Sequence record: NC_135729.1
DNA from: a phage
Strand: one strand, 5' to 3'
DNA length: 64,000 nucleotides
The first letter of the stretch is position 1, and each line of letters opens with the position of its first letter. A model generated the notes under the pieces. The model worked only from the letters and a program-made list of their open reading frames with translations. It did not search any database and was not told the DNA's origin. Positions 1,175 to 23,608 of this stretch are shown here, in pieces. The translations under genes were made by a program, and so were the position numbers.

Positions 1175-3511
1175 TTACCAAAGGTCGGTAGACATGAAGT
1201 TGATATCTTTATTGTTCTCCCACTCAAGTTTTGCATCAAATATTTTGTTAAACTCACCCTCATCTATTGAAATCGTGATTTTCCCATCACTGATCTCTAA
1301 AGGTAGCATTTCCATAGTTCTTAATTGAGAAGCAAAACCAGGGCCACCCGGCAACGGAAGAGTCCCGCCAGGTAAGGTGTCCAAAGGATTAACAAACCCG
1401 TTACCTCCCGATATGATATCTTTGCGAATCATATCGCTGATAGTATCTAGCTGCTGATTTCTTTCACTTAGTGGGTTGTAACGGTCATTAAATAATTCCC
1501 CGGCGCTTAGTATTGTACCGATAATGCCCAGCTTGCCGAGCCGACCAACTTTGCCACCAGGTGTCTTGAGGCCACCCCCACCTTTTCCTGCCGGAGCTCC
1601 ACCACCAGATCCTTCTGTAGTAGCGGCACCCGCTGCTCCAGCTGCACCCCTTAGAGAGTTAAGGAATTTAAAGGTTTTTACAAGCATGGATGCCATGACA
1701 AAACCTTTTGTTAGGGCGTTGACTACCAGCATGATGGCAGCAGCAAACCCTGCCCATTTAGCATAGCTAAAGGTGTCATGAAGCTCTTCAGAATATTCCT
1801 TCGTCTTAGCTGTTATGAATCCCCATTTAATCCCCCATTCAAGGAAAAACATGCGGATCTTGACTATAGTGTTGTTTAGTTCACCAACTACCCAGTTAAG
1901 GCCTCTCACAAACCCGCTAACAAAATCACCAGAGGCATCCCACACAAATTGCAGAGTCTCACCAGTGCGGATTAGTGTATAATAGAACTCTGTTAGTTCG
2001 TCAGACCAACGGGTGAACAGTTTCTGACGAGTCAGTTCGATGAAGGTTTTCAGTCTGTTTTCTGCCAGCACGTTAGACTTCTGCATTCTTTCATAACCAG
2101 CTGCAGATGCCTCGTTCATGTACTTAGCCACATACTTCATGATCTTGGCTGTTTTAACCTCACCTTTCTTCATCATGTCCATGAACTGATCCATGGAGAG
2201 TTCAGAAAGACCAAAAGCCTCTTTGGTGGCCTTGATAAAAGGTTCGTATGCACCAGGCAATGCTTCAGCAAGTTGTTGCTTCAGTTCTTCGGACATTACT
2301 TGTCCCTTGCCAAGCATCTGTTGGATAGCCATAATACCGCGCTGGTATTTTACCTCATCGGCACCATAAGCAGCAGCATACTGTGAGTATGCAGAAAACA
2401 GCTCATGCACTTCCTGATTTGTCATCTGGTTTTTGGCGTTTACCGACATCTGGGCGTAACCTTGAAGACCAGATTTGAGATCAAAACCAAGACGCATAGC
2501 CTCTTGCTGGACAAACGCAACCTCACTGTTGGCTTTGTTTGGATCTCCAGTAACAGCAGTAAGAGCAGCACTTGCCCCCTCCATCATATGACCGGATCTG
2601 TTAACCGCAGCAAATCCAGAAAAAGCCGTATACGCAGCTGTTGCATTAATAACAGATCTACGTAAGTCTCTCATGGCATCGCCTAGTGTAAGCGTTTGGC
2701 TGGTGGCGCTTTTAAACCCAGACTGCAGCGCTGACAGGTGGGCGTTAAAGGTTGACTTCTTCATCTCCCCGCGAGCAAACCTGGACTCTAACTCTGAGTA
2801 TCCTGGCAAGCTTCCACGGAATCCGGCCCCATACTTGGCAGAAAGTCTTATCGCGGAGTTGTAGAGGTGGGTTCTCCTTGCCTCACGATCCGACATAAGC
2901 CTATTATCCATACCAGCTTTACTGTCTCTTCTTAGCTGTCTATGATAACGATTCATAGCGGCTGTCTGAGCTTTTACAAGGTTAGGGTCGGAAGCCACAC
3001 CCCCCATATTAGGGTTACCGGGGATATATTTGAAAGATTTGGCATTAGCCAAAACTCTTGCCTTAGGTGCCTTATAACCACCGTAAGACACTGGTGCAGA
3101 TTTGGCAGCCTTTTTGGCCTCTTTAGCTTGCTGCTGGTAGAACTTACGCATCCTAGCCATTTCTGGATTTTTAGCGGTAAGATTACCTACAGCTTGTTTA
3201 CGTCTCGCATTCTCCCTACGTTCTATTGCAGCCCTTACTGCAGCCTCTTTCTTGGCCTGTGCTACGCTCTCTCTGTGCAGTTTAGCATTTGCCTGAGATT
3301 GCTGTCTGGCAACCCTCTGCATTGTCTGCTGGGTTTTAACAGCTACCGCCTGCCATCTACTCATGGGGTTGGCTGAGTTAAAATCCTCGCCCAGTTTCCT
3401 GAACTCCCTCCCAATACTGCGAATTTTCTCGACAGCTTTTTTGTAGGAGGAGTTCTCTATCTCAAAGCCAATCTTGTTGACTGTTGTGGCAACTATTTTG
3501 TTTGTAGCCAT
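1175..3511 (-). CDS. tail tape measure protein
   Basis: 778 aa, long helical/coiled N-terminal part and Gly/Ala-rich segment; sits after sheath-tube-chaperone genes. Confidence 0.75.
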   Translation of the reverse strand: MATNKIVATTVNKIGFEIENSSYKKAVEKIRSIGREFRKLGEDFNSANPMSRWQAVAVKTQQTMQRVARQQSQANAKLHRESVAQAKKEAAVRAAIERRENARRKQAVGNLTAKNPEMARMRKFYQQQAKEAKKAAKSAPVSYGGYKAPKARVLANAKSFKYIPGNPNMGGVASDPNLVKAQTAAMNRYHRQLRRDSKAGMDNRLMSDREARRTHLYNSAIRLSAKYGAGFRGSLPGYSELESRFARGEMKKSTFNAHLSALQSGFKSATSQTLTLGDAMRDLRRSVINATAAYTAFSGFAAVNRSGHMMEGASAALTAVTGDPNKANSEVAFVQQEAMRLGFDLKSGLQGYAQMSVNAKNQMTNQEVHELFSAYSQYAAAYGADEVKYQRGIMAIQQMLGKGQVMSEELKQQLAEALPGAYEPFIKATKEAFGLSELSMDQFMDMMKKGEVKTAKIMKYVAKYMNEASAAGYERMQKSNVLAENRLKTFIELTRQKLFTRWSDELTEFYYTLIRTGETLQFVWDASGDFVSGFVRGLNWVVGELNNTIVKIRMFFLEWGIKWGFITAKTKEYSEELHDTFSYAKWAGFAAAIMLVVNALTKGFVMASMLVKTFKFLNSLRGAAGAAGAATTEGSGGGAPAGKGGGGLKTPGGKVGRLGKLGIIGTILSAGELFNDRYNPLSERNQQLDTISDMIRKDIISGGNGFVNPLDTLPGGTLPLPGGPGFASQLRTMEMLPLEISDGKITISIDEGEFNKIFDAKLEWENNKDINFMSTDLW

Positions 3512-3520
3512 GGTTTCCTC

Positions 3521-3560
3521 ATAATAAAAAGGGCCAGATCCCAGAAAAGGAATCCGGCCC
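3521..3560 (-). terminator. intrinsic terminator-like hairpin between chaperone and tape measure genes
   Basis: Imperfect GC hairpin followed by TTTTTATT on minus strand. Confidence 0.4.
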
Positions 3561-3565
3561 TTAGA

Positions 3566-3814
3566 TTATCCTCTCCTGCGCTTAGCTTTCGCAGCAGCTG
3601 CGGCAGCCTTCTGCTCCCGCTCCATTTCCCTGTTTTGGACGGTATCTAGGAATTCTTCGATATCAAGATACTCACAGAGCTTCAGGAAATACGCCATATC
3701 TGCAAGATTTAGCGATTCAAAATTTTCCCCTTTGAAATTCTTGAGCACCCTACACCAAAGAAAGTCGAACCAGTTGAGTGAACTGTTCTTGGCTGCCCAC
3801 TCACTGGCCCTCAC
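3566..3814 (-). CDS. tail assembly chaperone, second ORF (gpT-like, possible -1 frameshift extension)
   Basis: 82-aa ORF in -1 frame relative to the upstream chaperone ORF; position between tube and tape measure genes. Confidence 0.4.
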   Translation of the reverse strand: MRASEWAAKNSSLNWFDFLWCRVLKNFKGENFESLNLADMAYFLKLCEYLDIEEFLDTVQNREMEREQKAAAAAAKAKRRRG

Positions 3815-3825
3815 AACAACCTTGC

Positions 3826-4299
3826 TTATTCCTGCTCTTCCGGAGTCTGATCCAGGTTGTTCACCTGCTGAATCATACCCATCTGCTGTAACATCTCCAG
3901 AAGGCTTCCTAAACCGTCTTGTGTGAAAAAACAGCCGTAGTTAACCTCCAGAACCTTACCTGCCAGCTTAATCATCTCCAGCAGATGCCCTGCAAACACA
4001 ACATCTGGGTTAAGCTTATCCACACCATCTACGGTAATATCTTCGAACAAGATTTTAAATAACTCTTCAATAGAGCTATCATCAAGTTCTTGGAACAGGT
4101 AAGCCAGAGCAGTAGGAAGGACCTCTGCCATATTCTGACCACCAGAGATAATAGATCCACCGATAGCACCTAGCGGGACAGCCACAATCTTACCGATTTT
4201 AGGCATGTTTTTCATTGCTTTCATCGGTCCCCAGTGGGTGATCACAAAGTTGTGCCCTGCTAAATCAATCTCTGTTGTAGGTCTAAAGTTTATAGCCAT
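3826..4299 (-). CDS. tail assembly chaperone (gpG-like)
   Basis: 157-aa acidic ORF between tail tube and tape measure genes. Confidence 0.5.
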   Translation of the reverse strand: MAINFRPTTEIDLAGHNFVITHWGPMKAMKNMPKIGKIVAVPLGAIGGSIISGGQNMAEVLPTALAYLFQELDDSSIEELFKILFEDITVDGVDKLNPDVVFAGHLLEMIKLAGKVLEVNYGCFFTQDGLGSLLEMLQQMGMIQQVNNLDQTPEEQE

Positions 4300-4461
4300 T
4301 TTATAGCATCCTTATTAGTCATGTTGTGCACCATATTTGTGTATTTTACCATGATTATGGTGCATTGTCAATTTAACCTTTCAAGCAATTCAAGAACGTG
4401 TGTCAAAACCATAAAAGCAAAAAGCCCCACCCGAAGGTGAGGCTTATGCTAAAGTGTGCCC

Positions 4462-14093: not shown

Positions 14094-15641
14094 TTAGATA
14101 AAACGCTTGAACATAGAAGGTGATGAGATTGATGGAATCACACAAGGAAGTGCTACCTCCTCTTTCTCCAGGAAATTAATCGCAGAAGCTACACAGTCGG
14201 CCCAGTCGTCTTTCCTGTTAAATGTTGATCTTTCCCCGTTGAATTTTTCAAGTTCAGTCAGAAATGCTTCCAGAGTATCAGGATGGAAACTGGATTTTAC
14301 AATCCTAACCATTCCTTGTTGGGCAAGATTGGCAAAAGGTGAGAACCTTGTCAGTTTAGATTTGTTGGAAGGCATTGGGTCTTCTTCAACCCTAAACCCT
14401 TCGGCGAGCAAGGATCTGGAGGATGTTAAGAACTCACTCTTACCTGCCTGACCGGGGTCCACAGAGAATACGATTATACAATCATCACCATCAAACTGCG
14501 CCTGTTTCCTGATGATCACATCTCGTTCACCAGCCTTTTTACAGAACTTGCCTTCCAGACCTGTGGAATACCTCCCGTCATCCACGTTCTCAGGACAATA
14601 ATCACCGGACAGGTAATAAAAGCCGTCGCTATCTTTACTTACCTTAACACTGGCGGTAAAGTCAGGAAATTTATTACCGGAAGTTCTCTCGGTTCCTGCC
14701 TTATCCCATGCCCTGCAAGATACTGATCCAAGGGGTACTCTATCGGCATCACGAAGGAAAGATCTTTGAAAATAGTTTGCACCCTCAGGCTTTGCAAACC
14801 AGTTGCCATGAAGAAGCTGGGCTTTTTCAAGCTCGGGCAGACCTTCAAGAAAAGCAAGGTATTCTGGGTTGTCTCTCAAGCAGACAGGATTATCGAAGAT
14901 TGTTGCGCCTATAAACGAGAATGACAACGGTCTTGGCTTGATCTCCACACCCAGTCCGTTAACCGTGGTGTATTTCTCTATCAACTCTTCTTTAGAGTCT
15001 CCCCAGATAAATTCACCGTCGCGTCGGATAAAATATCTTTTCTTACCGCATTTCTCCGGATCTGGATACCCTTCATCGTCCAACCACCATCTAACCAGTT
15101 TGGCAAGCATGTGTTCTGAATCTGGGTTACAGCTGATAACCATTCTTGATGGATACTTTGACTGAGATCGCAGACGAGACATCAGATAGTCTATCTGCTC
15201 CCATTCGAACTGCGTTCCCTCATCGAAGCAAACCATGGTGTACTCAAGCCCTTGATGGTTAAGCTTATCTTGTACATACTCCATGTGGCAGTATTTTACA
15301 ACAGCTCCCTTTTTGCTCCTATCCCACTTGCCAGTGTTCGGATCAAACCGTGGAAAAATGAACTTATGATCCTTCTCTCTGAACTTTGGCTTAATGTTTT
15401 CAGGCAGATCACTATAAATAGCTACTGCTTTAGGCCATAGTCCACCCTCACCTTCCAACTGTGGGGTTGTTCTTCGGAACATAACCACAGAGCTGTGGGG
15501 GTCATCAATAATTTTAAGTGGCATCAACTGCAAGAGGAACGACTTGCCAGACCCTGCGGCACCGCCGATTACCAAAATATCTGCATCGTTTTCTAGGATC
15601 ATCTTCTGCTTTTCAGAACACGGTCCGTAAATCTTAGACAT
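14094..15641 (-). CDS. terminase large subunit
   Basis: Walker A GGAAGSGKS near N-terminus, Walker B-like VCFDEG, 515 aa. Confidence 0.85.
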   Translation of the reverse strand: MSKIYGPCSEKQKMILENDADILVIGGAAGSGKSFLLQLMPLKIIDDPHSSVVMFRRTTPQLEGEGGLWPKAVAIYSDLPENIKPKFREKDHKFIFPRFDPNTGKWDRSKKGAVVKYCHMEYVQDKLNHQGLEYTMVCFDEGTQFEWEQIDYLMSRLRSQSKYPSRMVISCNPDSEHMLAKLVRWWLDDEGYPDPEKCGKKRYFIRRDGEFIWGDSKEELIEKYTTVNGLGVEIKPRPLSFSFIGATIFDNPVCLRDNPEYLAFLEGLPELEKAQLLHGNWFAKPEGANYFQRSFLRDADRVPLGSVSCRAWDKAGTERTSGNKFPDFTASVKVSKDSDGFYYLSGDYCPENVDDGRYSTGLEGKFCKKAGERDVIIRKQAQFDGDDCIIVFSVDPGQAGKSEFLTSSRSLLAEGFRVEEDPMPSNKSKLTRFSPFANLAQQGMVRIVKSSFHPDTLEAFLTELEKFNGERSTFNRKDDWADCVASAINFLEKEEVALPCVIPSISSPSMFKRFI

Positions 15642-16988: not shown

Positions 16989-17087
16989 AGGTGCTAGGCG
17001 GTGGAATCGAACCACCTATGTATTCAACGACTACCTCGTCTATTTTCAGGATTAAAAATCCTCGCCCTTGCCAAAGGGCTTACCTAG
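16989..17087 (-). tRNA. aberrant tRNA-like element (about 97 nt; anticodon unresolved)
   Basis: Canonical acceptor stem, D-arm (GCCC/GGGC) and T-arm (GGTGG-TTCGATT-CCACC), but about 30 nt extra between anticodon-like hairpin and T-arm. Confidence 0.35.
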
Positions 17088-17185
17088 CTCAATATGTTGA
17101 CCATGTTGCTAGTCGGCGATGACGACTGTAACATTTGATAATCCGGTTCTGCTTCCGGCTTTCGCTTAATTGCAAGGTCAACAAT

Positions 17186-18646: not shown

Positions 18647-18856
18647 TCAACAGATTCCGGCCTTATCCTTCCTGTCTGCGTATTCTTTAATCGCAACCTC
18701 ATCTGCATTAGTGACCAGGTATTCAAAGTAACTCTCAAGCTCCTCGTCAATGTCAGGAGACCAGCTCTTTTTCCTGTCAGTGTGAATTGCAGACTTGTTG
18801 AACTTATTACAGTTCTTTGCTACCGGGTTGTTCATTAAGCGCTCCTCAGCGTTCAT
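18647..18856 (-). CDS. hypothetical protein
   Basis: 69-aa ORF, start overlaps upstream gene end. Confidence 0.35.
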   Translation of the reverse strand: MNAEERLMNNPVAKNCNKFNKSAIHTDRKKSWSPDIDEELESYFEYLVTNADEVAIKEYADRKDKAGIC

Positions 18857-19424
18857 AGTAAATTTTATTTAACATTACCTCATCCTTTGCAGAAAGGATA
18901 TCTAGATATGCATCACCGAATCTACCTGCAACAACCTCTGCATGATACATCACTTCGTTAATATCGTCAAGAGTGATAACTGGATGACCGTATCTCTCTG
19001 AGTATTGTCTCAGAGTGCGATGTAGGGAGTCATCATCATAGGCAGACTTTTTAATATCGCAAACACGACGAATAGCCTTGATGTCGAAAAACCCTGTACG
19101 ATACCAACCAAGAAAAAGGTTTCGTGCAGTGTCAACATCTACATCAATACCATTAAGAACCTTATCTACAAGATAGCTGTCATCCTTTGGACCAGCTTCC
19201 TTAGTGCGAATGTAGTTGCCATCTTTTCCAGGTGACATCTCCTTCTCATCACCAACCTGCATGCCATCATTTGGCGGTGTTAGCCACTTATCCGGATGCT
19301 TACGATCACGAGCGTTAGAATGATTACGCTGGAAACCAGGCTTCCACTTGAAAGTTTTCTCCATCTGTTCTTCATTCTGATAACGTTTTGCAATCTTTTC
19401 ACGGTCATCTTTGCGTGAACCCAT
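18846..19424 (-). CDS. hypothetical protein
   Basis: 192-aa ORF with GAGGAGG SD upstream of ATG. Confidence 0.45.
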   Translation of the reverse strand: MGSRKDDREKIAKRYQNEEQMEKTFKWKPGFQRNHSNARDRKHPDKWLTPPNDGMQVGDEKEMSPGKDGNYIRTKEAGPKDDSYLVDKVLNGIDVDVDTARNLFLGWYRTGFFDIKAIRRVCDIKKSAYDDDSLHRTLRQYSERYGHPVITLDDINEVMYHAEVVAGRFGDAYLDILSAKDEVMLNKIYYER

Positions 19425-19927
19425 AGCTGCCTCCTCTTCAAGTTATAGAAAAACTCACTGTATCACTTTGTAACGAGCTTTTCTATCAAACTGGTGCGAT
19501 TGCATTACCTGGTATAGTTCATATAGCTGTGGAGCGATTTAGGGGCCTTCTTGTCAGTTTCCACACATAAACTTCATCCAAGCTCGCGCGGGAGACTCTC
19601 AACCGACTCCTTACGGCGCTGGCAAGCTTTCGTCGGTGGTCCACATCAGTGCTCGGCCTTTGGCCTGCGCTATCGCTTCGCTCCCACACATGTTAACAGA
19701 CCTGCATGTATGCACTTCTGTTATTGTGTGCACCAAGGAGGCCCGGCATCTCGCCCCTCGTAGGCGAGTGCCAATGAAGGGCCGACACTACCTATAGTAA
19801 GTAATAATTTTAAAACATGGTACTTAGGATCTAGTATATTCTACATAAGTTAAGTATATGTACTTAGTACCATAAGTACTAGATCTTTTATTTTTTATTA
19901 TTTAGTTATTTTAGTTATATTCTTTAT

Positions 19928-20010
19928 GTGTCCGTATCACGGACAGTTAGTGTCCGTATTACGGGCAGATGTGTCCGCGTGACGGACAGTAGTGTCCGTA
20001 TCACGGGCAG
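19928..20010. repeat. array of four tandem 22-bp palindromic repeats (iteron/operator-like)
   Basis: GTGTCCGTATCACGGACAG and three close variants in direct tandem, each with internal dyad TGTCCGT/ACGGACA; adjacent to 120-bp AT-rich tract. Confidence 0.7.
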
Positions 20011-20084
20011 TTACTGACCTCTGTTCCAGAGCGAACATAAAACATACGAATCCTTATAGTACAGATATTTAAGTTTTTACTGGT

Positions 20085-20435
20085 CTAACCAGTTGTTGAC
20101 ATTCGAATAACCTCTTCTGGTGGCAAAACTTTGGAAAATGTACATCTTTTACCTCTCCCTTGTGTGGATATTTCAACCACTCCTGCACATTCTAAAGTTT
20201 TAACGCACGCTGCTGCTTTTGTTTTCTTTATCCCAACATCTGCTGCAATTTTCCTTGTGCTTGGTGTGAAGCGTGAATTTCCTCCAAGCTTATACCAGTT
20301 GTGCAGGTAGCAGTATACGATCTTGTCATATAAGTCAAGAACAACAGCCTCCCCAGTTGTGTCATTCAAAACTTTTGACATAGACAGTATTTCAAGGGGG
20401 ACTTTAAGATATAGCAGCTTATCCCCATCTTTCAT
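20085..20435 (-). CDS. hypothetical protein (possible DNA-binding protein next to repeat array)
   Basis: 116-aa ORF whose stop is about 75 bp from the palindromic repeat array. Confidence 0.4.
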   Translation of the reverse strand: MKDGDKLLYLKVPLEILSMSKVLNDTTGEAVVLDLYDKIVYCYLHNWYKLGGNSRFTPSTRKIAADVGIKKTKAAACVKTLECAGVVEISTQGRGKRCTFSKVLPPEEVIRMSTTG

Positions 20436-20482
20436 ATCTCCTGATTCTCCTTGTGTGGCAATTTTCTTTAAAATAGCAGGGA

Positions 20483-21037
20483 TTACTCCCCGCTGTCAAT
20501 AGCAAGACTCATTGCAATACGGTATGCCTCTTCTAATGGTAAGAGTCTCCCCCACACATCCCAACCGACATCAAACTGCCTGCCAAACAACTGCTGTGTG
20601 GTTCCGTGAGCATGACCGAACAGTTGGACTGATCCGTGAGGCTTTCTGTTCCACTTTGCAAACTGGTAATGGCTCATACAGATCAAATTCTTGTTGTGGC
20701 GAAGCTCGTAATAATCTACAACCTCATGACCGAACTCTTTCATAATTCTGACAGTCGTCCTTGTGTCATGGTTACCACGAACAAGAATAATATGTCCGTT
20801 CAACATATTTAGAACATCTGGGAGCAATTTGTTGATATTCTTATCATTAGTGCACGCAATATCTCCCAAGTGAAACACAGTGTCTGCAGGTGACACAACA
20901 GAGTTCCACTCGGCGATGATTCCCGCATTCATACTGTCAAGATTGTGATCATACTGAGATCTGTGTTTTTGACATGAATCAAACTCCATGACCCGCTGGT
21001 GGAGAAAGTGTGTGTCGCTTGTTACAAAGTATTTCAT
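20483..21037 (-). CDS. calcineurin-like metallophosphoesterase (putative polynucleotide 3'-phosphatase)
   Basis: Start at Met (MKYFVTSDTHF); metallophosphatase motifs D-T-H, GDI, VRGNHD, GHAH. Confidence 0.7.
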   Translation of the reverse strand: MKYFVTSDTHFLHQRVMEFDSCQKHRSQYDHNLDSMNAGIIAEWNSVVSPADTVFHLGDIACTNDKNINKLLPDVLNMLNGHIILVRGNHDTRTTVRIMKEFGHEVVDYYELRHNKNLICMSHYQFAKWNRKPHGSVQLFGHAHGTTQQLFGRQFDVGWDVWGRLLPLEEAYRIAMSLAIDSGE

Positions 21038-21044
21038 ACATTCC

Positions 21045-21455
21045 TCATTTAAGTTTAATGCAGTTTTTAAGCTGGCGTTCCATACGATCCACAACCTTGT
21101 CTGGAACATCATGAATGCTTTTATTACCGTGGCGGTTTTCAACCACGATCACGGTATAACTATACCCGTGACTGATTGCCATGTCAACATATTCCTGCAC
21201 ATGTTTTTCTTTTGTAAACGTATTACTTACCACGATACGGTCGTATCCCGTACGCATCATATCTTCTACGTTATCTTTGCACCATTTTGCTGCGAGTGTT
21301 ACTTTACTTGCATCCCAGTTGTAATTGCCGTCATCGTCATACCAGAACATGTCGTTCTCAAAATGTGGATACAGACCTTCTAAAGATAGCGCATTTGCCA
21401 GTGTTGATTTGCCAGACCCTGGCAGACCACGCACGATATATAGCATTTTAGACAT
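21045..21455 (-). CDS. P-loop kinase (polynucleotide kinase-like)
   Basis: Start at Met (MSKMLYIVRG) with GGAGGG SD; Walker A GLPGSGKST; immediately upstream of the phosphatase gene. Confidence 0.6.
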   Translation of the reverse strand: MSKMLYIVRGLPGSGKSTLANALSLEGLYPHFENDMFWYDDDGNYNWDASKVTLAAKWCKDNVEDMMRTGYDRIVVSNTFTKEKHVQEYVDMAISHGYSYTVIVVENRHGNKSIHDVPDKVVDRMERQLKNCIKLK

Positions 21456-21515
21456 AGCAACCCTCCGTTTTAATTTTAATGATAGTATACCTAACTGTTT
21501 TGTTAATTTCAAGTG

Positions 21516-21545
21516 TTGACACTAGGTTATTTGTGTGGCATGATA
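21516..21545 (+). promoter_or_regulatory. possible promoter for ligase operon
   Basis: TTGACA at 21516 but only a weak -10 candidate. Confidence 0.3.
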
Positions 21546-21573
21546 GACTGACAAAATGACAAATGAGGAACGT

Positions 21574-22491
21574 ATGATGAAGTATTTTAATGCAGATGAC
21601 CTAGTAGACAAAGGTCTTGTAACCAGTCGGTATTATCCAGATCTTGGATTAAAGATCTATAAATATGCCAGAAAAGTATTCTACAACAATCTGTGGCATT
21701 TGTCTCCGCGTTTACTGGAGTGCCGAGGTATTGTTGTTGGCAATGAGGGGAATGTTGTGGCATGGCCTTTCACAAAAGTATTCAACTTAGGAGAAAACTC
21801 CACCAACCTACCGGACAGTAAACTTGTTACTGCGGTAGAGAAAAAGAACGGATTCCTCGGTGTGGTATCATCTCATAAAGGTGAACTATTGTTCTCAACA
21901 ACCGGGTCTCTTGATTCTCCATATTGTAACCTTGCAAAGGAAACCATCCAAGAGCAATGTGGTAATTTAGATCTTATCAAGAAGGTTATGGGCAATGAAA
22001 ACATGACATTCATGTTTGAAATTTGTCACCCTTCAGATCCGCATATTGTTCAGGAAGATCATGGCGCATATTTGATAGGTTGCAGATATAATGATTCTGG
22101 AATAATGCTACCAGAAGCAGCTTTAGATGGGATTGCCAAATACCTTGGTGCAAAACGTCCTCACACTGTGCGTGAAATTCCGTTCAGCTATGCAAAAGAA
22201 TTAGCTGCAGAAACAAGAGGTGAAGGGTATATGATTCGTAAGCCTTACTACCCTTATGATCTGCAGCTGAAGATCAAGTCTCCATACTATCTGGCACGGA
22301 AGGCCGTAATGAGGGGTAAAGCTTGGAAGATTTGGGATGATGATATCTTTAAACGTGTTGACGAAGAGTTTTACGGCATGGTAAACTTCATTCGTAGCAA
22401 TTACACAGAGGATGTGTGGAACTGCCTCCTGGAGCAGGAACGCCGTGAGATACTTGATTACTATTTCCACAACGAGAACTATATGCAATGA
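21574..22491 (+). CDS. nucleotidyltransferase of ligase family, probably RNA ligase
   Basis: Motif I-like EKKNGF, motif III-like FMFEIC, motif V-like EGYMIRK; divergent from kinase/phosphatase pair; start uncertain (track start 21556). Confidence 0.5.
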   Translation: MMKYFNADDLVDKGLVTSRYYPDLGLKIYKYARKVFYNNLWHLSPRLLECRGIVVGNEGNVVAWPFTKVFNLGENSTNLPDSKLVTAVEKKNGFLGVVSSHKGELLFSTTGSLDSPYCNLAKETIQEQCGNLDLIKKVMGNENMTFMFEICHPSDPHIVQEDHGAYLIGCRYNDSGIMLPEAALDGIAKYLGAKRPHTVREIPFSYAKELAAETRGEGYMIRKPYYPYDLQLKIKSPYYLARKAVMRGKAWKIWDDDIFKRVDEEFYGMVNFIRSNYTEDVWNCLLEQERREILDYYFHNENYMQ

Positions 22492-22838
22492 AGAAGTTGA
22501 TTGTGTGGCTAGATGACTTAAGAGATCCGTCAAATTACGGGCTCCCAGACGCTGTTTGGCTGAAGAATTCCTCCGAGTTTATGGATTTTATTAACGATAA
22601 GGGAAAGCTCTACAGACGCGTTTCTGAGTGGCATATGGACAACGACCTAGGAGAAGTATTCGAAGGATACGATTGCCTATCCATGTTGGAGGAAAAATTT
22701 GTATTCGGTAAGCCTCCCGTGGTTGACAACGTGAAGATTTTCGTACATACTTCTAATCCATCAGCGGCTCGTAAATTCATGCTTGCAGCTGACTCGTTTA
22801 AAAAGTTTGGAATAGAGATTAAACAAAACATCTACTGA
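22488..22838 (+). CDS. hypothetical protein coupled to ligase
   Basis: 116-aa ORF overlapping ligase stop by 4 nt; conserved-looking acidic patches (WLDDLRDP, WHMDNDLG). Confidence 0.4.
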   Translation: MKKLIVWLDDLRDPSNYGLPDAVWLKNSSEFMDFINDKGKLYRRVSEWHMDNDLGEVFEGYDCLSMLEEKFVFGKPPVVDNVKIFVHTSNPSAARKFMLAADSFKKFGIEIKQNIY

Positions 22839-22846
22839 GGGCACTT

Positions 22847-23608
22847 ATGCGACGACTGATTATTATCTCCGGTGCTGGTTTGAGCGCTGAATCTGGTATT
22901 CCCACTTTCCGATCTGGTAGTACTGCAATGTGGGAGAATTTCAGCATAGATGAGGTGTGCAACATCCACACCTTCGCCAAGAACTACTATAAGGTGCATG
23001 ACTTTTACAATGCACGTCGTGTAGCTCTGGGCAGTGTTGATCCTAACCTTGCACATCTCCGGATCGCTGAGTGGTATTCCCGCTGGTCTGGTCGTGTGAT
23101 CAACCTGACCACCAATGTAGATGATTTGCTGGAGCGTGCTGGTGTAAAACATGAAGATATTTTACATGTCCACGGGTATTTGCCTGAAATCACCTATGAA
23201 GATACTGAAGGTAATGATGTAATTAAAAATATAGGGTACACGGAGGTAGATACAGGCAAGTATACCTGGGTTAAGCCCAATGTAGTGTTCTTCGGTGAGG
23301 TTGCTCCTAAGTATACAGACATGTATGACCTGTTGACATCTCTTACCAGCAATGATATGGTGATCCTGGTAGGTTGTTCTAACACAGTTATTAATTTTAA
23401 CTGGGAATTGTTTCCTGCTACTTGTAAAGGCACAAAACTGCTGATTGTAAACAAGTATGATTCGCAGAGTGCAGATGGAAGTGGCATTTCACGTAGCGAC
23501 CTTTATCAATATGAGGATCGCGGGATCCCTGTATGGTTTAACGGTGCTGTTGACGCTTTCTCTGATAAAGCATTTATTGAAACTGTAGAAAACTTTATGG
23601 AACTGTAA
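22847..23608 (+). CDS. Sir2-like NAD-dependent enzyme (sirtuin family)
   Basis: GAGLSAESGIPTFRS Rossmann motif, TTNVDDLLERAG and HVHG catalytic-His motif; no CxxC zinc ribbon seen. Confidence 0.7.
   Translation: MRRLIIISGAGLSAESGIPTFRSGSTAMWENFSIDEVCNIHTFAKNYYKVHDFYNARRVALGSVDPNLAHLRIAEWYSRWSGRVINLTTNVDDLLERAGVKHEDILHVHGYLPEITYEDTEGNDVIKNIGYTEVDTGKYTWVKPNVVFFGEVAPKYTDMYDLLTSLTSNDMVILVGCSNTVINFNWELFPATCKGTKLLIVNKYDSQSADGSGISRSDLYQYEDRGIPVWFNGAVDAFSDKAFIETVENFMEL

Follow-up and report, generated by a model that had tools for sequence, protein, structure and literature searches.

A four-repeat dyad array beside an AT-rich tract in rV5-like phages as a candidate iteron-type replication origin

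A 64,000-nucleotide stretch of phage DNA (NC_135729.1, analysed at its full length and hereafter called the window) carries four tandem palindromic repeats next to an AT-rich tract, and the question raised by this locus is whether the repeats mark an origin of replication or form a multi-site operator for the gene beside them. A sequence-only reading of the window had offered both interpretations; the evidence assembled here leans to an origin, on account of the architecture, the AT-richest window of the genome, and an initiator-like neighbour, while the operator is retained as a rival. Judged by its sequence, the window is from an rV5-like phage (Vequintavirus, E. coli myoviruses of ~137 kb), the region 19300–20600 being 98–99.6% identical to 118 Vequintavirus phage records. 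No replication origin has been defined for Vequintavirus, and phages of the rV5 type are often put forward for use in phage therapy and biocontrol. In the rV5 genome paper, a skew analysis carried out in search of an origin revealed transcription switches only, and the origin was not definable. Whole-genome counts in the present analysis are based on MG065646.1, the complete, assembled 137-kb genome of a 99.6%-identical relative. This record is one of 18 labelled UNVERIFIED "Campylobacter phage" (MG0656xx), all of which are rV5-like Vequintavirus sequences 98–99.6% identical to E. coli phages; their Campylobacter host label is doubtful.

The array occupies 19928–20010 (no strand assigned) and comprises four dyads of the form TGTCCG-N5-CGGACA with a 21–22-bp period. 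The individual copies lie at 19929–19945 (TGTCCGTATCACGGACA), 19951–19967, 19972–19988, and 19993–20009, with start-to-start distances of 22, 21, and 21 bp, in agreement with the four tandem palindromic units of about 22 bp described earlier. That description had given the internal dyad as TGTCCGT/ACGGACA; the dyad is indeed present, but comparison across phages shows that its conserved part is 6 + 6 bp (TGTCCG-N5-CGGACA) rather than 7 + 7. The pattern TGTCCGT-N3-ACGGACA, with up to two mismatches allowed, matches four times in the 64-kb window against an expectation of 0.11, and no shuffled sequence reached four. A search for the motif elsewhere gave an equally clear result: in the complete MG065646.1 genome, dyad sites with at most one mismatch are confined to the array. 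Tandem Repeats Finder scores the array at 110–126 and every other repeat of this 137-kb genome at 46 or below; the array is the only such dyad cluster, and the only substantial tandem repeat, in MG065646.1. Iteron arrays contain at least three tandem 17–22-bp sites in helical register, and the array presents four.

Matches to the dyad outside Vequintavirus were treated separately. An exact-dyad scan of viral contigs yielded ~100 single matches, which were taken as chance. One unrelated 46.6-kb viral contig (IMGVR_UViG_3300042691_021677) contains TGTCCG-N5-CGGACA six times at 1798–4426, with a chance expectation of 0.03; these dyads are 350–750 bp apart, mostly between small genes, and may represent a dispersed operator set or intergenic hairpins. 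We rejected this contig as informative for the array locus, its dyads being dispersed and without a homologue of the 116-aa protein encoded beside the array. A scan of genome contigs with the 18-mer GAAAGCTTGCCAGCGCCG returned 95 matches, which were also treated as chance because most fell in GC-rich genomes and both of those inspected were in coding sequence.

The AT-rich tract that had been noted beside the repeats spans 19796–19927 (132 bp, 80.3% AT). Its last 42 bp (19886–19927, no strand assigned) are 92.9% AT and directly abut the array, which is the placement of an AT-rich element in an origin, and we propose this stretch as a DNA-unwinding element. In MG065646.1, the adjoining tract is the AT-richest window of the entire genome at 60, 100, and 130 bp (83%, 81%, and 80% AT, respectively). 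The rest of the tract (19796–19885, no strand assigned) holds interleaved inverted repeats, two GATC sites, four GTAC sites, and two copies of GTACTTAG, a sequence that occurs four times in the genome of the near-identical relative, twice within the AT tract. The inverted repeat reported earlier, GATCTAGTA...TACTAGATC, is found at 19829–19837 / 19877–19885 and interleaves with a second pair, ATGGTACTTAG / CTTAGTACCAT; folded as single-stranded DNA, the 19796–19885 part gives z = -6.25. Inspection by eye of the tract and of the GC-rich block beyond it for DnaA boxes and IHF sites revealed only DnaA-like sequences with one or two mismatches. We also observed that three of the nine metagenomic contigs carrying the 116-aa gene stop inside or at the array (L117 at 1839, L121 at 2505, and L122 at 2519), and that position 1 of the GenBank assembly MG065672.1 falls at the array. 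These ends could result from a drop in coverage in the 80–93% AT tract, or from a physical DNA end or nick.

Genes at the locus lie on the minus strand throughout. Along the direction of transcription, a polynucleotide-kinase-like ATPase and a metallophosphoesterase are followed by the 116-aa protein, a 660-bp non-coding region, a 192-aa ORF (gp073 homologue), small ORFs, and a cluster of seven tRNAs. Gene direction switches at 21512/21556, where the oppositely oriented genes encode an RNA ligase, a cREC_REC protein, and Sir2. The cumulative GC skew, analysed for the MG065646.1 genome and the window, reaches its global minimum at about 21497 (window position), 1.5 kb from the array; this position is also that of the divergent gene switch, so transcription may account for the minimum. 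The same switch is straddled by an RNA-repair-like gene set (20483–23608), located beside the tRNA cluster and consisting of the metallophosphoesterase, an AAA_33 kinase-like ATPase, a T4 Rnl1-type RNA ligase, the cREC_REC (cyclic-phosphate processing receiver) protein, and Sir2. Within the tRNA cluster, ARAGORN assigns a four-base anticodon (atcc) and no amino acid to a 99-nt tRNA-like gene at 16990–17088 (minus strand), which is labelled tRNA-OTHER or tRNA-Lys-TTT in other records and is not reported by Rfam; this gene may be intron-bearing or otherwise aberrant.

The adjacent 116-aa ORF noted from the letters of the window is present at 20085–20435 on the minus strand and encodes a winged-helix protein, homologous to rV5 gp075, that is our candidate array-binding protein. 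Its gene is preceded by a sigma-70-like promoter at 20470–20499 (minus strand; TTGACA-18-TATTTT, extended TG), and the annotation of rV5 places a sigma-70 promoter, P76, at the corresponding position. The protein scores 24.5 bits against Pfam HTH_36 (PF13730), for which the gathering cut-off is 25, and also matches DUF6945; PF13730 is listed in precomputed Pfam data for two cluster representatives of the protein (P0001 and P0003), and for its remote relatives membership in HTH_36 is clear. The protein matches PHROG 12838 ("replication initiation protein", by annotation label only) at 1e-79 and, more weakly, PHROGs 8102, 428, and 270, all labelled replication initiation; no match was obtained to Pfam Phage_rep_O at E values up to 0.1. 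The protein is a single winged-helix domain and lacks a C-terminal domain for recruiting a helicase or helicase loader. By sequence, its sole relative in the PDB is 4ro3, an uncharacterised Vibrio N-terminal domain. An AF2 model has a winged-helix core and a mean pLDDT of 57 (low confidence). Searched with this low-confidence model, Foldseek places 4ro3 first and then the RepA_N staphylococcal plasmid initiators 4pql, 4pt7, and 5kbj, the latter being weak matches (E 1e-3 to 1e-2, TM about 0.55), with LexA, CodY, and the DnaD N-terminal domain among further matches. Taken together, the profile and fold matches weakly suggest that the protein is distantly related to initiators of the O-like and RepA_N-like types, through their N-terminal domains.

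Two very large protein searches confined the family to Vequintavirus, plus distant HTH_36 / DUF6945 winged helices; three matches to long repetitive proteins (P0007, P0010, and P0012) were discarded as spurious. The protein search and the DNA search with the array each returned 118 phage records with the same organism breakdown, and the 116-aa protein and the array appear to co-occur in the same 118 records. Outside the genus, Proteus phage Mydo encodes a distant homologue of 105 aa (L115 2489–2764; PHROG 8102) at a divergent gene switch. The intergenic DNA beside this homologue includes an AT-rich tract, two AGATCT sites, and a short GCTCAATTTGAGC palindrome, and the locus yielded no tandem array. 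In phi92, the equivalent place is an AT-rich divergent intergenic region that has neither the array nor the winged-helix gene.

The reading that we prefer, and whose chances we judge to be about even, is that the array forms the initiator-binding part of an iteron-type, ori-lambda-like origin, with the 116-aa protein as candidate origin-binding protein. We infer that the repeats are bound by protein, that DNA melts, and that replication starts at this locus, as follows. The early 116-aa protein, whose gene lies 75 bp upstream of the array, would bind the four in-phase dyads as dimers, the four sites being placed on one helix face, two turns apart. The resulting nucleoprotein complex would stress the adjoining 42-bp, 93% AT stretch and cause it to melt, and a T7-gp4-like primase-helicase and a PolA-type polymerase, both of which have been reported for rV5, would be loaded at the melted stretch. 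The structured block beyond the AT tract may contribute an RNA with a priming or regulatory role, or else a signal for single-strand initiation.

The unique array, the AT-richest window, the match to ori-lambda, the initiator-like neighbour, the skew minimum 1.5 kb away, and a parallel in related plasmids (described below) together lean towards this origin. Several points stand against it. The skew minimum is confounded with gene orientation; the candidate initiator is small, has no helicase-recruiting domain and no Phage_rep_O match, and resembles RepA_N proteins only weakly and through a low-confidence model (mean pLDDT 57); and the name "replication initiation protein" comes from database annotation. 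Furthermore, the array lies outside any gene, whereas ori-lambda is inside gene O, the AT tract is conserved base by base in a manner suggesting specific sites, and large virulent phages may depend mainly on recombination-dependent replication.

We quantified conservation as the mean pairwise difference per site among 14 Vequintavirus sequences. This measure is 0.020 for the repeat array and 0.024 for the AT tract, compared with 0.047–0.049 for the coding flanks, 0.049 for the GC-rich block, and 0.128 for the 74-bp spacer that separates the stop codon from the array. The array and the AT tract are the most conserved parts of the locus, ~2.4-fold more conserved than the flanking genes. Because the AT tract is conserved base by base, it probably does more than melt easily and suggests specific sites, such as promoters or sites for a second protein.

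Conservation of this kind is expected of promoters and UP elements, and it favours the best-placed alternative, which we nevertheless consider rather unlikely: that the array is a multi-site operator or enhancer at which the 116-aa protein, acting as a transcription factor on four cooperative dimer sites, would control a promoter in the AT tract driving the structured RNA and the downstream genes from gp073 to the tRNA cluster. In a variant of this proposal, the bound dimers would be a roadblock to read-through from the winged-helix gene. The sites are dyad-symmetric, as in classical operators, and the 116-aa protein, which the submitters first annotated as a transcriptional regulator by similarity to GntR N-termini, has weak matches to winged helices of the LexA, CodY, TrmB, and MarR types. 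Moreover, the structured block needs a promoter if it is an RNA, and the local genes are co-directional, the winged-helix gene and the block not being separated by a terminator. However, a scan for sigma-70-like promoters, which is blind to promoter types specific to the phage, found none in 19796–20084 on either strand; that no such promoter overlaps or adjoins the array weighs slightly against a simple operator. The sites are also situated downstream of the regulator's own gene and not over its promoter, and a single target cluster in 137 kb would be unusual for a regulator. Finally, four in-phase sites abutting a 93% AT stretch are the standard layout of an origin, and the related plasmids have iterons, not operators, at the equivalent position.

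The repeats themselves vary in an informative way. In the 14 phages compared, the half-sites TGTCCG/CGGACA are invariant except at position 3 (T/C), the variation otherwise falling in the central 5 bp. At the variable position we observed T-A, C.A, and T.G, and never the compensated C-G, indicating that conservation of the array is not about hairpin pairing. As far as the aligned sequences go, this pattern fits a dimeric (helix-turn-helix) protein that would recognise a pair of half-sites separated by one helical turn. In phage A135 the array has three copies, exactly one 21-bp unit being absent (alignment A4 columns 74–94).

These data bear on a further alternative, in which the repeats would be four RNA hairpins in the 3' untranslated region of the winged-helix mRNA, serving to stabilise it, to mark it for processing, to bind an RNA-binding protein, or to cause pausing or termination. 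Each unit can form a stem of 6–7 bp with a loop of 3–5 nt, the variation is concentrated in the would-be loop, and the six dispersed intergenic dyads of the unrelated 46.6-kb contig (L087) follow a pattern seen for intergenic hairpins. We nonetheless regard this explanation as improbable. An intrinsic terminator requires a GC-rich hairpin followed by a T-run; no repeat is followed by a T-run on either strand, there is no U-tract, and no terminator-like site was detected in 18800–20600. In addition, repeat 3 of almost all the phages contains an uncompensated C.A (on the transcribed-sense strand), and the strict 21–22-bp phasing and the adjoining AT tract would be left without a role.

Following the AT tract is a conserved, non-coding, GC-rich (56%) block at 19535–19795 (minus strand) that is common to a group of 13-kb E. 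coli plasmids. Rfam returned no family at the gathering threshold, and only chance-level matches at E values up to 10, for the block in phage and plasmids. The block is partly homologous to unannotated DNA of these circular plasmids (L127 985–1330; L130 14940–15070), and comparison of the two versions reveals paired changes. The helix at 19603–19636 has three pairs with compensatory double changes and no broken pair between phage and plasmids, together with a G-U intermediate that pairs on the gene-sense strand only, and the hairpin at 19740–19783 has two compensatory pairs between phage and plasmid. Covariation among the phages alone is uninformative because their sequences are ~92% identical. 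An 18-bp deletion in rV5, A135, Pr121LW, and A6-1 (A4 columns 362–379; window ~19706–19723) shortens another hairpin of the block and keeps its base. The compensatory changes between phage and plasmids point to a structured RNA or a single-stranded DNA element; on this comparative evidence, the block probably represents a structured RNA not described before, or a single-strand initiation signal.

The plasmids are circular, ~13.2–13.7 kb in length, and occur in 7 of 5426 complete genomes, in none of them on a chromosome. The family includes NZ_CP020521.1 (L128), NZ_CP043822.1 (L130), and two further members (L228 and L229), and one record is a head-to-tail trimer. MOB-suite assigned no replicon type to these plasmids, and we found no published description of the family. 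They encode homologues of Vequintavirus proteins, namely a tail-tube-initiator/"baseplate" protein with ~50% identity, whose best matches are in Vequintavirus, a 152-aa protein (45%), a tape measure protein (26%), and a major capsid protein (24%), and the plasmids may represent satellites of rV5-like phages or miniature versions related to them. The plasmid iterons are 6–7 dyads of the form ACCCCGGTAAATATTTCCG with a 23-bp period. In both plasmid variants examined, the homologue of the structured block follows the iterons, and one variant has three AT-rich 36-bp palindromic units after them; a 303-aa protein encoded downstream has weak matches to O-like initiator PHROGs. Neither the phage nor the plasmid type of iteron was found in the other element. 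Because an autonomous plasmid must have an origin, its iteron array is the obvious candidate, and the order of iterons and then block, which plasmids and phage have in common, supports an origin role for the phage locus. We also considered gp073 (192 aa) as the split-off C-terminal half of an O-like initiator and rejected it, as it resembles neither any relative nor the plasmid 303-aa protein and matches no Pfam family.

A last alternative is that the array or the adjoining block is the pac region recognised by terminase for headful packaging, with the 13-kb plasmids as phage-packaged satellites that have the block in common; we think this very improbable, for although Vequintaviruses have been reported to be circularly permuted, headful (pac-type) packagers with no pac site located, a shared pac site would be expected to appear as a non-coding element present both in a phage and in satellite-like plasmids, and the ends of the three metagenomic contigs and the GenBank record noted above fall within the array or at its edge, the large terminase gene (15641..14094) is 4.3 kb away with genes and the tRNA cluster between, the compensatory stem changes of the block argue for an RNA or single-stranded function and not a duplex protein site, the array sequence is not common to the plasmids, and the contig breaks are equally explained by poor coverage of the 80–93% AT tract.

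Returning to the origin, we put forward a wider proposal in a tentative spirit and expect that it may well fail: the array, AT tract, and block would constitute one origin module common to Vequintaviruses and to the satellite or miniature-relative plasmids, the latter having their own initiator and iterons, and the block would belong to a new origin-associated non-coding class for priming or replication control. The structured block and the phage-related plasmids are a more novel lead than an ori-lambda-like origin, and the block shared with the plasmids may reveal a satellite system for rV5-like phages. If the origin reading is true, it would provide a concrete origin and a candidate initiator, leading to replication mapping, phage-dependent replicons, and engineering tools, and it would offer a way to study how replication starts in a large virulent phage with a T7-like replisome.

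Defined origins have precedents in other virulent phages. T4 oriE consists of an iteron cluster whose use requires adjacent early genes (RepEA/RepEB), and at T4 oriF and oriG and the T7 primary origin a promoter is followed downstream by an AT-rich unwinding element. The locus described here differs from these origins in that we found no sequence or protein homology to them, and the sigma-70 scan detected no promoter in the phage tract.

Plasmid iteron origins (RepA_N staphylococcal, Rep_3/pi-type, and RSF1010 oriV) resemble the phage locus in having helically phased tandem sites beside an AT-rich unwinding element, and RepA_N N-terminal domains are the nearest to the protein model after 4ro3 (weak Foldseek matches with a low-confidence model). 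In RSF1010 oriV, the iterons are followed by an AT-rich stretch and then by structured single-strand initiation sites, an order that would parallel the iterons, AT tract, and structured block of the phage. Plasmid iterons, however, tend to be asymmetric direct repeats to which monomers bind; the phage repeats, by contrast, are dyads, and a copy-control role is not expected in a lytic phage. The 13-kb plasmids (NZ_CP020521.1, for example) have dyad iterons followed by a homologous block with covarying helices and, in one variant, an AT-rich palindromic tract between them. They differ in the sequence, number, and period of their iterons (ACCCCGGTAAATATTTCCG, 6–7 copies, 23 bp) and in their putative initiator of 303 aa, which has weak O-like matches, and their own origin is likewise a candidate predicted from sequence.

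The origin of phage lambda provides the fullest comparison. Ori-lambda lies within gene O, whereas the array is outside genes, 75 bp past the winged-helix gene. Unlike lambda O, the candidate initiator has only 116 aa, with no C-terminal domain for P or a helicase loader and no Phage_rep_O match, and the array resides in a virulent myovirus of 137 kb that has a replisome of its own. At 132 bp, the phage AT tract is also longer, and it contains conserved palindromes. Lambda O binds as dimers through an N-terminal DNA-binding domain, and the candidate here is a winged helix. In ori-lambda, O dimers bind four imperfect inverted repeats of 18–19 bp with a total span of ~87 bp, and the 38-bp AT-rich tract joined to them melts; the phage locus likewise presents four tandem imperfect inverted repeats of 17–19 bp, with a period of ~21–22 bp and a span of ~85 bp, adjoined by an AT-rich tract of ~40 bp.
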